Source: an uncultured virus (IMG/VR IMGVR_UViG_2721755777_000003) (Duplodnaviria; Heunggongvirae; Uroviricota; Caudoviricetes). From it: a stretch of 64,000 nt of DNA. The stretch covers positions 62,001 through 126,000 of IMG/VR virus record IMGVR_UViG_2721755777_000003; one strand, written 5' to 3'. Made by a program: the position numbers and the translations under genes. Below the pieces are notes generated by a model, which saw only the letters and a list, made by a program, of their open reading frames with translations, was not told the DNA's origin and ran no database searches. Shown piece after piece: positions 5,352 to 62,051 of this stretch (positions are counted from its first letter, which is position 1; each line of letters opens with the position of its first letter).

Positions 5352-5712
5352 GGTTGTATGTTGCTATTTCGTGTACTCCTATATCCCCTGCAAAGTTTCC
5401 ATCCTCATGTTCCTGTTGTAAATAAACCTCTTTATCTTTTTCAAAGATTTCTCTTGCTTCATCTAATTCAGTTACAGCTTGCGATCCCATTCGATCTGTT
5501 ACAGTAAATACTAAGCACCGTTTTAACTCGGTACCATCTTTAAGGACTACGTCTGCCATGACGTACCCATTTGGCTTTAGTTCGCCAATTTCATTACGTC
5601 TTTTATCGATTGCCTCTTGAAGAACCACAGAAACAGTATTGTTATCAGACTCACTTAAAGCCATTTCTAATTCTTCAATTTCCTCAAGTAGTACTTGAAT
5701 TTCCTCTCTCAT
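5323..5712 (-). CDS. Acidic hypothetical protein
   Basis: 129 aa, AAGGAG RBS. Confidence 0.75.
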   Translation of the reverse strand: MREEIQVLLEEIEELEMALSESDNNTVSVVLQEAIDKRRNEIGELKPNGYVMADVVLKDGTELKRCLVFTVTDRMGSQAVTELDEAREIFEKDKEVYLQQEHEDGNFAGDIGVHEIATYNLEYENGVTE

Positions 5713-15852: not shown

Positions 15853-15950
15853 AGTGACTAAAGGGGAATTAATCCCCTTTAGCGTGTTATCTGCGTATAC
15901 GTTTGCGTTGTCTCTTGCTACGGAGGCGCTTGCGTGTACGCTTTTTCTTT
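15853..15950 (+). ncRNA. Probable SR6-type antisense antitoxin RNA (ends approximate)
   Basis: TTTACA..TGtTATAAT promoter (15819-15846) pointing antisense into the yonT 3' end; hairpin CTAAAGGGGA/TCCCCTTTAG. Confidence 0.6.
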
Positions 15951-16066
15951 TTGCTTTTTTTATTCTTCATCAGGTTTTGAATCTTCTCAGCTATCGTTAA
16001 ACAGTTGATGATTAAAACCGTGATAGGAATAAGGAAAGCAATTGTTATACCCACTTTCTCAAGCAC
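15887..16066 (-). CDS. yonT: YonT type I toxin, 59 aa
   Basis: GTG start after AGGAGGTG; one TM helix and a very basic tail KKKKRTRKRLRSKRQRKRIRR. Confidence 0.9.
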   Translation of the reverse strand: MLEKVGITIAFLIPITVLIINCLTIAEKIQNLMKNKKSKKKKRTRKRLRSKRQRKRIRR

Positions 16067-17021
16067 TATGTACACCTCCTTTCCTATAACTCTATTATAG
16101 CACATTTTCCCTTCAAAGTCATTTTATTTTTACTCTAAAAATGGATTTTTTTAAATTATTTTGGCACTATTATTCATGTGTGTATAGGCTGTATGAGGCG
16201 TGTATGTGGATTGGATACCAATGATACTATGATCAAATTAAAATTGATTCTAGGTGTATTATAAGGCTTCTAATGATGTGTGATTAGTGTGTATAGGATG
16301 GATATATAATGTATGGTGAAGGAAACGGATAGAGATGATTAGGCAAGATGAGGATATGTAATGGTGGATGTAACGAGATGAAGGAATATGATTAGAGTGA
16401 ATATAAAATAGGTGTGTGGATTAGATGAGTAAATTGTATAGATAAAAAATAAGACTTCGATTTGCTTCCTTTCGTTATATACACGATTATTTTTAATGAA
16501 TGGGTATTCACTTTTAAGTTGACCGCTTAATTATTTTTTCAAAAATAAATATTGTTTTTCATTTGAAATTGTGTTAGCTGTGCAAATTTATCAGTTAAAT
16601 CATAAAAACCCTACATAACGTATCTTATATAGGGAATTCATTACCATTATATAGGGGGTATAATAACATCTAAAGGCAAAAAAACAGGAACAAACGTACC
16701 CCTAGCACTTCCATTTCCACACCCAACTTATTTTTCCACTTTCCCATTTTTCAGCCTATTTTCGCATCGTAATCGCTATCGTAAAAGCCTATAGTATCAA
16801 TGTTTTTCCACCCCTTATTCTCCCCTTTTTCATCAGATTTTTAACTCAACGACCACTTTTCCTCTCTCCTGCCTACGTTTTACGATCACAAAACACCTAT
16901 TATCCCCTTTGACAGCTCTAAAACATTGCTATATCAACTAAATAACCCTTTCCGACCTTCATTTACGATAAGCACTTTTTTTAGCTCACGATCACCCAAG
17001 GGGGGTCATTAAAAATCAAAA

Positions 17022-19209: not shown

Positions 19210-21084
19210 TTGAAAAGAAAAAAAGACGGATTGTCTAAGCAAGTTCACATCTACAGTGTAGACACATCGGCATTTTATAATGACAAAGAAAATTCATTAC
19301 ATAATAAGATTTTGAAGTCTTATAGATACAGAGATTACCTTAAGACATTAGACAATGTAAATCATAAACATAAGAAATACATATCACAAAGGATTACATA
19401 CCTTAAAGAATGCCTTTATTCCGCATTTGAAGAACATAATGACATCAGAACACTTCGAACTGATAGTTTAAGGGATAATAAAGTGATTTCTTTATTTGAT
19501 TCAGTGTTGACCCGTACATTAGGGATTAAAGAAAACACCCTTTCAGAGGAAATCATGGTTGTCCAGACTTATCATTTTGAAGTATTGAAGGACATTATTG
19601 ATCAGGGATTTTTACATAACAAAGAAAAATACGTTTATTTCACGAGCAGCGCCGGTCAAATTCGTACAAAGAAGTCATGTTTCATTAAAAAAAGCACCTA
19701 CGATAAGTATCAGGATGCTTTGACATGCGGCTTGAGTATTGAAAAGATTAACTCCCTTGGTGGTAGCAGCATTAACAAATGGAATAGCTATATGGCCTTA
19801 TCTAACAGCGCCAGTAGCCCTTGGGAGATTGATATTGATAAAGCTATTGTTGTCAACGACTTAGAAACTGATGTGTCGAGTTTCGTTGACTACATTGATC
19901 GAGATACCTACGAGATCACACGAAAAACAATGAACATTCCCATTGAACATACAGATGGCTGCGGAATGATACTCCCTAATCTAAGTCGTAAAAGCTTCAT
20001 GGTAAGACTCCCATGGGTAAAGGGTTTATTAGTCCCTTTTGATTTTCGTAAATTTGCTGAGGAAAACAAAGCTTTTAAAGTAACTGATATATACGGCAAG
20101 GAATGGGACGTGATGAAAGATGATGTTCAAATTATCTTCACTAAGAGCCAGTTTAAAATGTGGAAGTATTATTCATCGTGGGAAGAATATCAAGGCAATT
20201 ATAAAAAATATGGATGCTTAGGGGCAAAACTCAACGAAGAAGATCCTTCTGTTGAAGGGAAGCTCACTTATCAAATGCTCCAGACACTTACAGATATCTC
20301 CGATGAAGAATTAATTCAAATGAGCTCAAAGACTGTAAAAGAGATTACCACATTGGGAACTGACAAAGAAACCATGTTAAGAGTTCTTGGAGCTACAGAG
20401 AAAAAGAAACATCGGACAGCTCTTCAGGACGCTTTACTTCTATATCCAGAACTTCTTAACGATGATCACACGAAAGAAATTATTAAAAATAAAAAGAAAA
20501 GCATGATTAAAGATGCCAAATCAGGAAAATTGCTTGTTGATGGTGCTCGTTATACATATTTATGCCCTGATCTGTATGCTTTCTGCGAAAAATTATTTCT
20601 GAACATCCAGAACCCAAAAGGACTGCTTTCAGGAAGTGATGTCCATTGTTCTTTATATGATGAAGGGTATATTGACATCCTCCGCTCCCCTCACCTATTC
20701 AGAGAGCATGGTGTTAGGTGGAACAAAAAAGATGAGAAATATGAAAAGTGGTTCATTACCCCAGGTGTTTACACAAGCATTCATGATCCGATATCTAAGT
20801 TGCTGCAGTTTGATAATGACGGGGATAAGGCCTTAATTATTTCTGATGAGTTAATCGTCAATATTGCCAAGCGTAATATGGAAAACATCGTTCCGTTGTA
20901 TTATGAAATGTCTGTAGCCCAGAAACAAAAGATTAATAGCAAGAACATCTATGAAGCACTAACTCTTGCTTATGGGATCAATATCGGGGAGTACAGCAAC
21001 AACATCACTAAAATATGGAACAGTGACAATATAAACCTGGACGTGATCAAATGGTTATGTATGGAAAATAACTTTACTATCGAT
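19210..21084 (+). CDS. yonO: YonO single-subunit two-barrel RNA polymerase, exon 1
   Basis: HTDGCG, RLPWVKG, RSPH and catalytic FDNDGD motifs; ends ..NNFTID at the 5' splice site. Confidence 0.92.
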
Positions 21085-22375
21085 TAAATTTATAGTCGCG
21101 TCGCATAGCGATATGCGGATGAAAAGTCAGTGAACCTAGAAATCTAGGGTGTACATTCAGCGAAAAGTAGCGATAGGAAATGATCGTCAATGAGTGTGCT
21201 AACAGGGGAATTCTAATTAATGCATTTTACATTTTTGAACAATGATATTTAAAACAAGGGGGTGACAAAGTGAAGTTTATAAATGAGGATGAGCATAAAT
21301 ATTTGAGTGGGATATATAAGATTGAGCAGATAAGCACCGGCTTAATATATGTGGGGAAAACTAAGATGAAATTTATTAAGCGTTACTGGCATCACACTTG
21401 GAAGCTGAAAAACAATTCGCACTGTAATCGACATTTGCAGAATACCTGGAATAAATATGGAGAAAACGATTTCCAATTTCATGTATTGCAAACAGTTGAT
21501 CCAAACTCAGATATGAACGAATTAGAAACTCACTACATAAATGAACTAGGTGCCTATTTAAATGGCTTTAACATGACCACCGGCGGAGAGGGCAAGAGTA
21601 ATTGTAAGATGTCTGACTCCACCAAAAGAATTATTGGGGAAAAGAATAGGATTAATAACACCGGAAGAAAACTTAGTGATGAGACTAAAGCCAAAATGAG
21701 TAAAGCGAGAATTGGCAGAAAGCTCTCTCCGCAACATAAGGAAAAGCTTTTACAATCTAGAATGAATAAAAGGCATTCGCCAGAATCTAGATTAAAGATG
21801 CGTCAGTCTCATTTAGGGTCAAAAAATAAATCCTCAAAAATAAATGAAACGAAAGCATACGAGATAAAAGTTCGTTTGATTAATGGAGAAAAGATGTCCG
21901 AAGTATCAAAGTCAATGTGTGTTTCCTACCCCATCGTTAAATCAATATTAGAGTGTAAAGTATGGAATCATATTCATGTTACTGGGTGGGACGACTTTAT
22001 TCTTAAATACAAAAGCAAGAAGAAAAGCACTCTTACTCCAAAAGAAGTATTTCGCATAAGAGAACTTCTTAAAAAAGGGTTATCAGCACCCCATGTTGCA
22101 AAAAAGTGTAACATAAAACCCAATGTTGTCTATGGAATTAAACAAGGAAGAACCTATAAAAATGTAAAATGAATGTAGAATGTATTATATGAAAACCCTG
22201 TGCCAAGCGTTTACATCATGCTGGGAAGCACTTGTAAATGAAGGTGCAACGACCATCCTTTATGGAGTAATAATAAGGTGAAATTCCTTATTATGAAGCG
22301 CTGACCATCTGTCTAGCACAGATGATGATATGGTCTATTCCCTAATAAAATATCGGGAAACCGAGGGTATCAAAG
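21085..22375 (+). mobile_element. Group I (IA-like) self-splicing intron, 1291 nt
   Basis: P1 with U21084.G21095 wobble; P3 GTCAGTG/CGCTGAC; P4 ACAGGG/CCCTGT; P7 GACCA/TGGTC; P8 CATCTG/CAGATG; terminal omega-G 22375; excision restores the reading frame. Confidence 0.92.
21270..22172 (+). CDS. Intron-encoded GIY-YIG homing endonuclease with NUMOD3-like repeats and C-terminal HTHs
   Basis: SGIYKI..IYVGKT, R/H/E/N GIY-YIG residues; repeats KLSDETKAKMS and RHSPESRLKMR. Confidence 0.92.
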   Translation: MKFINEDEHKYLSGIYKIEQISTGLIYVGKTKMKFIKRYWHHTWKLKNNSHCNRHLQNTWNKYGENDFQFHVLQTVDPNSDMNELETHYINELGAYLNGFNMTTGGEGKSNCKMSDSTKRIIGEKNRINNTGRKLSDETKAKMSKARIGRKLSPQHKEKLLQSRMNKRHSPESRLKMRQSHLGSKNKSSKINETKAYEIKVRLINGEKMSEVSKSMCVSYPIVKSILECKVWNHIHVTGWDDFILKYKSKKKSTLTPKEVFRIRELLKKGLSAPHVAKKCNIKPNVVYGIKQGRTYKNVK

Positions 22376-23023
22376 TTCGCAAAAACCTTATTCATGCCTA
22401 CCCGACCTGATCATGTTGATGAAAAAATTAAAGATTACGTAAAAAATAAAGTGCCCCACTTCTTTATCAATGCAAAGGATAAAGAAGAACATAGTGTTGA
22501 GTTAATTAATGAAAGCACAGTAAATAAGTTAGACTCCATTATCCCTTCTGACCGAATTAATTTCGCAGCTGTGGCAGGAAAGTTTGATTATCGTTTTCTG
22601 CTCAAGAACAAGGAGATTAAGTTGGACGAGGCAATTATTAGTGAGTACAAACGATTAGACCAAAACAAGAAATGGCTCATGAATGATGAAGACATTAAGC
22701 CTGGACAAAAACTTTATGTTTATAAGGTTATCAAAGACAGATTGCTGAAGATACATGAAGACGAACAATATGTTGCTGATGTTCTGATTAAGTATCTGTA
22801 TAAAAAGAAGAGTAAGTTCAAATCGACACTGTGGGAATGTTTCGGTGCTTGTATATTAAATAATCTAACACACAACCTGAAAACACTAAGAGTTTGCAGT
22901 GATTGTAAAACGCTATTTAGGGCTAAAACAAGCAAGAAACTTTTCTGTGGGAAATGTACAGTTAAGAGGAATAAACAAAAAACAAAGGAACGTGTCATCC
23001 GATTTAGAAATCAAAATGTGTAA
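22376..23023 (+). CDS. yonO: YonO RNA polymerase, exon 2 (spliced product 840 aa)
   Basis: TTC GCA AAA ACC TTA TTC ATG continues ..[15 protein letters not shown]..; C-terminal CxxC..CxxC. Confidence 0.9.
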
Positions 23024-61799: not shown

Positions 61800-62051
61800 A
61801 TGACTAAAATTAACTGGAAAGTAAGACTAAAAAAGAAAACATTCCTGGTTGCAATCTTCTCTGCAACTCTTTTGTTTGCACAAGCTATTGCATCTGCTTT
61901 TGGATACGATATTTCTGTATTTAGCGATGATCTTACTGAGAAATTTAATGCTTTGCTTACATTTCTAACTGCAATGGGGGTTGTAGTGGATCCAACCACT
62001 ACAGGTATCTCAGACAGCGATCAAGCAATGGAATACACAGAACCAAAATAA
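61800..62051 (+). CDS. Phage holin (phiLC3-like family)
   Basis: INWKVRLKKK..GVVVDPTT.GISDS motifs. Confidence 0.9.
   Translation: MTKINWKVRLKKKTFLVAIFSATLLFAQAIASAFGYDISVFSDDLTEKFNALLTFLTAMGVVVDPTTTGISDSDQAMEYTEPK

Follow-up and report, generated by a model that had tools for sequence, protein, structure and literature searches.

A likely mobile group I intron with a GIY-YIG endonuclease gene in the RNA polymerase gene yonO of SPbeta-like phages

We analysed a window of 64,000 nucleotides (nt), taken from positions 62,001 to 126,000 of the IMG/VR record IMGVR_UViG_2721755777_000003, a provirus record of 126 kb with a CheckV completeness of 98%. In this window yonO, the gene of the phage's own RNA polymerase, is interrupted on the + strand by an insert of 1291 nt at positions 21085-22375. 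We predict that the insert is a group I intron which is functional and mobile and encodes a homing endonuclease, and give this reading a probability of roughly 0.9. A previous examination of the letters only, called here the sequence-only reading, had proposed that yonO holds a group I intron and, within it, a homing endonuclease of the GIY-YIG family; this proposal is now supported by the junction, by a core whose helices covary, by an endonuclease domain resembling that of I-TevI and by population data. The element belongs to a well-known class and lies in a gene for which such an intron has apparently no earlier description.

The interrupted yonO gene and the point of insertion

Within 19210-23023, the list of open reading frames (ORFs) contains three items on the + strand: 19210-21087, 21270-22172 and a frame open from 22376. 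The insert divides yonO into the parts 19210-21084 and 22376-23023. The first ORF consists of 625 codons followed by a TAA which is the opening codon of the intron, and the second part was listed as 22394-23023, though its frame is already open at 22376. The ORF list and Pfam agree with the description of yonO as two ORFs flanking a GIY-YIG gene.

The limits of the insert are exact, as they come from the alignment with intronless SPbeta (locus L002) and with phi3T (locus L001). In the intronless relatives, SPbeta included, ATCGAT is joined directly to TTT/CGCAAAA; SPbeta itself has ATCGAT followed by TTTGCAAAA or, with a longer 5' context, ACTATCGAT followed by TTTGCAAAA. The alignment leaves an ambiguity of one T at the boundary, which is resolved by what holds for group I introns generally: U is the last base of the 5' exon, and G that of the intron. 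The insertion then falls between codons 625 and 626 of yonO. When the exons were joined in a script, we obtained a frame of 840 residues without any internal stop, which is 84% identical to the YonO protein of SPbeta (839 residues) in an ungapped alignment of 819 residues. This bears out the claim that removing 21085-22375 gives an intact RNA polymerase of 840 residues. RNA in which the insert is kept meets an in-frame stop, UAA, at 21085-21087.

The three most conserved blocks of YonO include that of the insertion, which is comparable in conservation with the block of the catalytic DNDGD. The 21-residue windows from 609-629 to 611-631 rank 3rd to 7th of 820, and DNDGD itself, at residues 535-539, is within a top-conserved block. 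So conserved an insertion point is typical of the targets of homing endonucleases. A search for a solved structure of YonO found none.

The split gene can be recognised in existing annotation. GenBank gives two coding sequences (CDSs), yonO_1 and yonO_2, in Goe11, and two hypothetical proteins in phi3T; the sequence-only reading had expected annotation pipelines to call a pseudogene, and these records give two CDSs instead. We found no description of a yonO intron in the literature searched, subscription-only papers and supplements lying outside the search, and the Goe11 preprint, in its available part, has a single mention of yonO and none of introns. The earlier remark that no intron seems to have been described in yonO agrees with this search, with the reservation that the split was already visible in GenBank.

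The ribozyme core

The insert is predicted to fold as a group I intron of the IA type, the helices of which are listed in Table 1. The RNA features that the sequence-only reading had named are all present: the U.G pair of P1, the P3, P4, P7 and P8 pairings, the extra hairpins after P7 (IA-like) and the terminal G. The wobble pair of P1 at the 5' splice site is U21084.G21095. The terminal G22375 directly precedes TTCGCAAAA, this boundary being set by the intronless alleles, and the 3' end of the intron, ...GGGTATCAAAG, is common to 21 of 21 SPbeta-type intron alleles. By eye, two diverged orthologues (loci L063 and L064) retain a P1 with its U.G, built of other letters, and the splice-site rules (U.G and terminal G) hold in both. 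P3 and P7 cross each other to form a pseudoknot, as is typical of group I introns. As to the subgroup, Michel and Westhof are said to have taken, in 1990, helices P7.1 and P7.2 between P7 and the 3' strand of P3 as marks of subgroup IA.

We aligned 11 intron cores after the ORF-bearing loops had been excised by script, the helices being read off the window sequence. Over these 11 cores, paired cells amount to 70 of 70 in P3, 66 of 66 in P7, 64 of 66 in P4, 61 of 64 in P8 and 87 of 98 in P7.2. P3 makes 7 of 7 pairs in every sequence where it is aligned, and its outer letters differ in each distinct intron; in the comparison of distinct relatives, P4 and P7 were likewise fully paired with differing letters. 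P7 is fully paired (6 of 6) in each of the 11 sequences, three of its positions being compensated, and compensatory changes are found at 7 of the 9 positions of P7.2 and at 7 of the 7 positions of the outer P3.2 stem. For the final count a near-duplicate row (L016c) was dropped, which left 10 cores, 12 helices and 68 pairs. There, 590 of 633 helix cells pair, while 500 shuffles gave 461 on average and 483 at most, and double compensatory changes occur at 47 of the 68 positions (mean 28 and maximum 36 in 500 shuffles). Sliding the 3' partner by 1-3 columns makes the pairing fall from 93% to 34-43%. The natural allele of 331 nt at locus L016, whose ribozyme is 98.4% identical to that of the window, has a minimum free energy (MFE) z score of -4.68, and 0 of 100 shuffles were as good.

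Between P3 and P4 stands an extra domain of two hairpins, for which the labels P3.1 and P3.2 were coined in this analysis; a literature search for a name of this domain returned nothing relevant. Its motif runs GUGAACC, hairpin, GGGUGU, hairpin with the loop AGGAAAUG, GCUAAC, and is supported by covariation. The same domain is present at loci L006, L007, L008, L010, L011, L012, L063 and L064, which are group I introns of Firmicutes phages, and it is common to the SPO1-type polymerase intron and to nrdD introns.

A search with group I covariance models had been put forward as a check by the sequence-only reading, for which the lack of any match would have counted against the intron. The Rfam model RF00028, whose gathering score is 50 bits, does match the intron, though below this score: it gives 18.0 bits (E 0.094, E-value mode) on the 3' half of the window intron, 19.7 bits (E 0.0088) on the 400-nt form of phi3T and 38.3 bits (E 2.1e-8) on L016, a compact allele without ORF. 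In this last case the match is significant, if still short of 50 bits, and the full model (1-253) is aligned, with P1 on the exon-intron junction and with P3, P6, P7, P8 and J8/7 at the expected places. The scoring of RF00028 treats the large P5 loop, the P3-P4 insertion and P7.1/P7.2 as insertions. At the gathering threshold it has no match in the whole window or in the phi3T locus, and on the relatives L006-L009 it gives nothing at E <= 0.01.

Table 1. Features of the interrupted yonO gene and of its predicted intron (positions in the window)
Feature	Position	Strand	Basis or remark
yonO exon 1, 625 codons	19210..21084	+	ORF list; Pfam RdRP PF05183, 31.5 bits; collinear with SPbeta YonO
Predicted group I (IA-type) intron, 1291 nt, UAA start, G22375 end	21085..22375	+	
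P1 hairpin: exon CGAU and intron UA (21081-21086) with guide UAGUCG (21093-21098)	21081..21098	+	read from sequence
P2 hairpin: CGCAUA, loop GCGA, UAUGCG	21102..21117	+	5 of 6 positions compensated
P3 5' strand GUCAGUG, partner 22299-22305	21126..21132	+	
P3.1/P3.2, extra two-hairpin domain from P3 to P4	21135..21197	+	conserved in this clade of phage introns
P3.1	21135-21139 with 21144-21148	+	
P3.2	21153-21159 with 21191-21197; inner stem 21170-21174 with 21183-21187	+	conserved AGGAAAUG loop
P4 5' strand ACAGGG, partner 22196-22201	21202..21207	+	
P5 5' strand, partner 22172-22188	21217..21233	+	MFE fold of phi3T form
Shine-Dalgarno-like AAGGGGGUGA, 3 bases before GUG start	21257..21266	+	read from sequence
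GIY-YIG homing endonuclease gene (predicted), 300 residues, GUG start	21270..22172	+	Pfam, PDB and PHROG matches
P5 3' strand (22172-22188), J5/4, P4 3' strand CCCUGU (22196-22201)	22172..22201	+	
P6/P6a hairpin GUUUACA ... UGUAAAU	22209..22239	+	MFE folds; RF00028 alignment
P7 5' strand GACCAU, partner AUGGUC 22330-22335	22251..22256	+	pseudoknot with P3
P7.1 (~22257-22266), P7.2 (22270-22278 with 22286-22294)	22257..22294	+	
P3 3' strand (22299-22305), P8 (22306-22311 with 22319-22324), J8/7 GAUGAU, P7 3' strand (22330-22335)	22299..22335	+	RF00028 alignment with high posterior probability
P9 (CCCU with AGGG), inner GAAA-tetraloop hairpin, 3' tail to G22375	22340..22375	+	
yonO exon 2, 215 codons and stop, first codon TTC	22376..23023	+	

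The 3' tail of the ribozyme is conserved far above the rest. The final ~50 nt of the intron (22326-22375, P9) recur at ~85-94% identity, mostly 88-94%, in the ~50 short-match rows listed, out of 263 records matched in all; these rows stem from phages of Staphylococcus, Listeria, Enterococcus, Brochothrix, Lactobacillus and Bacillus.

The endonuclease gene, the yonO alleles and mobility

The endonuclease ORF was said by the sequence-only reading to sit between the two P4 strands, which is true and can be put more precisely: it lies in the terminal loop of the long P5 stem (21217-21233 with 22172-22188), and the 3' strand of P5 begins with the final base of the ORF, A22172. The protein matches the Pfam families GIY-YIG (PF01541, 30.9 bits, cut-off 22.6) and NUMOD3 (PF07460, 32.3 bits, cut-off 20.4) and the homing endonuclease family PHROG 314 (E 1.7e-29). 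Its N-terminal ~90 residues align to the catalytic domain of I-TevI (PDB 1MK0/1LN0) with an E value of 2e-8. The catalytic positions aligned with I-TevI are GIY, YVG, the Arg of KR, Glu and the Asn of NGxN, and Tyr, Tyr, Arg, Glu and Asn are what we take to be the catalytic residues of the GIY-YIG domain. The ORF of 300 residues is intact in all 11 full-length copies of the intron, with 1-16 amino acid differences from that of the window. At locus L064, in a yonO lineage whose exon 1 is matched by our query at 66% amino acid identity, an orthologous ORF, 54% identical over 300 residues, occupies the same loop; the orthologous ORFs of L063 and L064 are preceded by similar Shine-Dalgarno-like motifs. 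Among isolated phages, a protein at least 95% identical is confined to seven phages with the yonO intron, the next best match being at most 41% identical.

In part of the diverged lineage the orthologous GIY-YIG gene is broken into two overlapping frames, one of 113 and one of 165 residues (L063, 1985-2784; L061, 5312-5746). This suggests, as far as can be read from the sequence, a decaying endonuclease in an otherwise intact ribozyme.

Two candidates were rejected. I-TevI cuts 23-25 nt upstream, at a CNNNG motif, and one might have supposed that a motif of this kind at -25 to -21 is lost in the alleles bearing the endonuclease. Most yonO alleles have CATGG there, and its presence does not track the endonuclease: the window reads TATGG, the other 10 full-length alleles read CATGG, and the compact and intronless alleles vary. 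The endonuclease of the Moonbeam polymerase intron, which has the same length of 300 residues, is unrelated (BLASTP E 0.31).

A survey of yonO alleles, as had been suggested, reveals a presence/absence polymorphism at one site. We obtained 78 yonO loci of IMG/VR from the best 80 of 201 matches: 53 are contiguous, 21 hold an intron at the same codon and 4 are truncated or broken elsewhere. The 21 intron loci comprise 9 full introns, 3 of 400 nt, 6 compact ones of 330-331 nt and 3 diverged yonO loci with an orthologous intron. Two of the IMG/VR loci surveyed (L049 and L065) are intronless at the site and have longest frames of just 442 and 395 residues; their yonO is interrupted at another place, whether by a frameshift, by a stop or through an assembly error.

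Among the 24 phage records matching the region, 16 have the intron and 8 are intronless. The full intron with the endonuclease gene is found in seven phages (BUCT083, Goe11, Goe14 and SPbetaL4-7), where it is 97.5-98.1% identical to that of the window. The 400-nt intron is found in nine records (phi3T and its derivatives, SPR and SPbetaL3), and the eight intronless records include SPbeta, Goe12, Goe13, SPbetaL1, L2 and L8 and one hybrid. The 400-nt form lacks 891 nt and must be a deletion derivative, because the last 41 nt of the endonuclease ORF remain in it. The compact form (L016, L018, L022, L023, L042 and L045, ~5376-5706 in each) is without trace of the endonuclease ORF and has its own P5 hairpin of 18 nt, UUAUCG-AUA-CGAUAA. 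It represents either a pre-invasion state or a clean replacement, and is distinct from the phi3T-type deletion.

Between the 21 SPbeta-type intron alleles the ribozyme keeps an identity of 96.5-100%, while their flanking exons are 76.6-100% identical (median 79%), and it is more similar than the exons in 208 of the 210 pairs of alleles. An exon tree of 47 alleles, built with 6 nt omitted on each side of the insertion site, demands at least 9 changes of intron presence, an approximate count of which 8 changes are forced by well-supported branches. At position +3 of exon 2 (22378) a synonymous C distinguishes the alleles: exon 2 opens with TTC in all 21 intron alleles and with TTT in all 26 intronless ones. 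The markers at -19, -25, +24 and +30 track the exon clade and not the intron. Such a pattern would be expected of co-conversion over a very short tract at the insertion site. The fact that all intronless alleles read TTT argues against their origin by precise loss from spliced RNA, which would leave TTC. On these sequence comparisons, the element looks mobile and appears to have spread horizontally in recent times. A P10 pairing aided by the C at +3 was also considered and is unsupported, as no complementary GAA is visible by eye in the P1 loop.

It may be asked whether the endonuclease has any part in this distribution. The intron could be self-splicing with an endonuclease that is inactive or does not home, the patchiness resulting from ordinary phage recombination and from intron loss. 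Endonuclease-less forms do account for 10 of the 21 intron-bearing SPbeta-like alleles, the yonO alleles are mosaic, SPbeta-like phages recombine readily (there are hybrid phi3T-SPbeta records), and the -19 and -25 markers follow the exon clade. We nevertheless consider this explanation unlikely: every full copy has the ORF intact with all catalytic positions present, a diverged yonO lineage retains the 54%-identical orthologue in the same loop, the similarity of the intron far exceeds that of its flanks (in the 208 of 210 pairs given above) and the +3 marker is tightly linked, as expected from short-tract gene conversion at the insertion site.

One can also imagine that the element decays in a defective prophage, in which yonO is inactivated, no lytic cycle takes place and the ribozyme features are relics. 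The sequence does come from a provirus record, unspliced RNA stops at the UAA of 21085-21087, and the alleles L049 and L065 are broken elsewhere. This is the least probable of the explanations that we weighed. The same intron is found in isolated phages with recorded hosts and complete genomes (Goe11, Goe14, BUCT083 and SPbetaL4-7), with the 400-nt form in phi3T, SPR and SPbetaL3. Both exons have an open frame and a conserved sequence, none of the 11 copies of the endonuclease ORF is disrupted, and the provirus is 98% complete according to CheckV. A functional mobile intron remains the reading that we prefer.

Splicing, RNA contigs and related introns

The functional intron that we propose would act as follows. 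The pre-mRNA would fold into a ribozyme core made of P1 to P9. Exogenous guanosine would then attack after U21084, the base in U.G wobble with G21095 in P1, and the freed exon 1 would in turn attack after the terminal G22375. Splicing would restore the yonO frame of 840 codons, and the ligated junction would be GAU joined to UUC, that is ACUAUCGAU joined to UUCGCAAAA, with the C at +3 setting it apart from intronless alleles. By analogy with known homing endonucleases, the enzyme, translated from its own ribosome-binding site, would cut the intronless yonO of co-resident or co-infecting relatives, and repair off the intron-bearing copy would insert the intron into the cut allele.

In SPbeta, according to the available part of PMC5467207, lysates of a yonO deletion form no plaques and 37 late genes fail to be expressed. 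An interrupted yonO is borne by phages that were isolated and grown on B. subtilis, such as phi3T, Goe11 and SPbetaL4-7. The function of yonO must be restored in them, because the deletion gives no plaques and yet isolated phages carry the interrupted gene; it is a sound inference that late expression depends on splicing. Moreover, the ribozyme has stayed 96.5-100% identical in the two endonuclease-less forms, which are independent of each other; unless splicing is under selection, this conservation is difficult to account for.

RNA data consist of 4 RNA-library runs out of 23 runs listed, in the form of assembled Logan contigs, the uncovered parts of which are uninformative. The contigs of one of them (X4) end at 21011. 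In the metatranscriptome X1, a contig of 62 nt joins 21085 to 22379 via TT, which reads GAT joined to TTTG, and the intron-bearing contig of X1 differs from this joined contig at the base before 22379. The joined contig reads TTT and the intron alleles read TTC, so that it is best explained by a co-occurring intronless phage. In X1, a food-fermentation metatranscriptome, an intron-bearing allele (a contig of 1353 nt) stands beside a junction of the intronless type, and exon 2 has at least two variants; this one sample thus contains rival yonO alleles together.

Several results weigh against a functional mobile intron. The RNA-library contigs of X1, X5 and X15 carry the unspliced intron and none proves splicing. 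The joined contig had to be rejected as a splice product, as it has the intronless signature TTT and not TTC, and it was found in X1 only. None of the three alleles reaches the curated score of RF00028 (18.0, 19.7 and 38.3 bits against 50). The core is unusual, with a two-hairpin insertion of ~65 nt where the canonical core has a short J3/4. The covariation alignment and the structure were made by ourselves from the same sequences, which favours the structure; moreover rows L009 and L012b are partly misaligned on the 5' side, the effect of which is to lower the counts and not to raise them. The C-terminal match of the endonuclease to HTH_38 is weak (18.4 bits, with a cut-off of 27). Finally, recombination inside yonO may distort the exon tree from which the changes of intron presence were counted.

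The unspliced form in the RNA-library contigs would also be expected if the insert were a spacer, derived from an intron or bearing an endonuclease, that has ceased to splice, and YonO were made as two polypeptides, residues 1-625 and a C-terminal part starting from ATG 22394, which assemble into an active polymerase. GenBank lists precisely two CDSs, yonO_1 and yonO_2, the second starting from an ATG equivalent to 22394, and split polymerase subunits exist in jumbo phages, as noted in the available part of PMC2919709. We regard such a split gene as very unlikely. ATG 22394 has no Shine-Dalgarno-like motif ~5-12 nt upstream in the sequence as read, the nearest one being GAGGG, which ends 24 nt upstream and lies inside the predicted P9 helix, and a start at this ATG loses the six conserved residues FAKTLF. 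Furthermore, the ribozyme core is kept with compensatory changes, the ribozyme is 96.5-100% identical even in the two endonuclease-less forms, and the U.G and the terminal G are retained in the diverged L063 and L064.

Pieces of the ribozyme are found by blastn in 168-263 phage records, from phages of Bacillus, Staphylococcus, Listeria, Enterococcus and Clostridium hosts. Seven loci were fetched; each match sits in a gap which splits an essential gene, and most of the gaps hold an endonuclease ORF. The split genes are nrdD (EFP01 and CS01), terL (PH15, annotated as a joined CDS), the gene of DNA polymerase III alpha (an Enterocloster phage) and that of DNA polymerase I (an SPO1-like phage, Moonbeam and BSP18), the SPO1-like locus having an HNH ORF similar to I-HmuI. 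In Bacillus phage BSP18 (L012, ~845-2224), two group I-like introns stand nearly back to back in the DNA polymerase gene, the first with an HNH ORF and the second (1850-2224) without, and with a very short exon at most between them.

The architecture of the core is shared with the introns of the SPO1 type (I-HmuI) and of Bastillevirinae: the GUGAACC-hairpin-GGGUGU-hairpin-GCUAAC domain, P7.2, J8/7 and P7. These introns differ from that of yonO in their host genes and in their endonucleases, which are of the HNH type and lie in P8 or P6, not in P5, and the similarity is confined to core blocks at ~73-80%. In the available part of PMC11878797 (2025), the polymerase introns of SPO1 and Bastille serve as known positive controls and are detected by a splicing assay, fragments of phiNIT1 polymerase and SIOphi terL self-splice in vitro, and splicing in vitro or in vivo is reported for SPO1/Bastillevirinae polymerase, terL and ribonucleotide reductase introns, which may or may not include the loci aligned here.

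In the same phage group, SPbeta bnrdE and bnrdF hold group I introns (Lazarevic et al. 1998, as cited in the available part of PMC8270828). They are likewise introns of the self-splicing type in essential phage genes, with the difference that the host gene is here the phage's own RNA polymerase and not one of nucleotide metabolism. In the same provirus, outside the window, RF00028 has matches on the - strand at G000:C1:13584-13862 and 16538-16775 (loci L004 and L005), with scores of 66 bits for L004, which passes the Rfam cut-off, and of 40.4 and 31.5 bits for L005. They probably correspond to the known introns of SPbeta-like ribonucleotide reductase genes. The yonO intron shares blastn matches of just 17-24 nt with these two loci, so its ribozyme sequence differs from theirs.

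The intron of T4 td with I-TevI is also of group IA type with a GIY-YIG endonuclease, has a modular tail with NUMOD3 and a helix-turn-helix, and its ORF is looped out from the core. In T4 td the ORF sits in another loop than P5, and just ~90 residues of the catalytic domain can be aligned between the two enzymes.

A phage whose own RNA polymerase gene holds an intron has been published before, the case being gp210 of PhiPA3. As the available part of that work tells (Birkholz et al., Science 2024; PMC11620839), the intron with the HNH endonuclease gp210 lies in a virion RNA polymerase subunit gene, and the enzyme nicks the PhiKZ homologue with a 3.7-fold competitive effect. There, as here, the RNA polymerase gene of a phage is interrupted at a site of high conservation by an intron with an endonuclease; the PhiPA3 endonuclease targets the intronless homologue of a competitor and gives an advantage, and the same role had been proposed for the yonO intron by the sequence-only reading. 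PhiPA3 differs in that it is a jumbo phage of Pseudomonas, its polymerase is multisubunit-like and its nicking enzyme is of the HNH type, while the yonO intron belongs to a temperate Bacillus phage with the single-subunit YonO and a GIY-YIG enzyme. A mobile intron is also mentioned for a polymerase subunit of 201phi2-1 in the available part of PMC2919709.

We may propose, tentatively and with more doubt than belief, that the yonO intron and its endonuclease are a weapon in phage-phage conflict besides being a selfish passenger. If so, cutting the intronless polymerase gene of a rival SPbeta-like phage, resident or co-infecting, would stop the late transcription of the rival or force gene conversion, the synonymous change from TTT to TTC at +3 would be an immunity or co-conversion mark, and late gene expression, as the only late polymerase of the phage would need splicing, would be tied to the availability of guanosine nucleotides in the host and to its translation state.

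The finding extends a known class and provides a useful annotation and an experimental system, without new principle or mechanism. SPbeta, phi3T and their relatives are model temperate phages of B. subtilis, used for arbitrium signalling, prophage recombination and defence-system screens, and YonO is an essential and evolutionarily unusual single-subunit polymerase, needed for the transcription of late genes in SPbeta-like phages. If the intron is spliced, the polymerase of many such phages, phi3T included, can be produced only after RNA splicing. For annotation this means that a gene now recorded as two unrelated CDSs would be one; there are also consequences for the cloning and expression of YonO and for understanding which alleles prevail in hybrid phages. 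A single codon shows three natural states, full (Goe11, SPbetaL4-7), endonuclease-less (phi3T, SPR) and intronless (SPbeta). Together with the linked exon marker, these states, of which the intron-only one has two forms, make a ready system for the homing cycle and for intron-mediated competition in a Gram-positive host, which would parallel the case of PhiPA3 and PhiKZ.

Finally we must note another RNA of the window, upstream of the yonO region: at 15855-15952 (+) the Rfam family SR6_antitoxin (RF02892) matches above its gathering score, with 88.8 bits and an E value of 1.5e-14. This family is an antisense RNA that belongs to a type I toxin-antitoxin pair of Bacillus.

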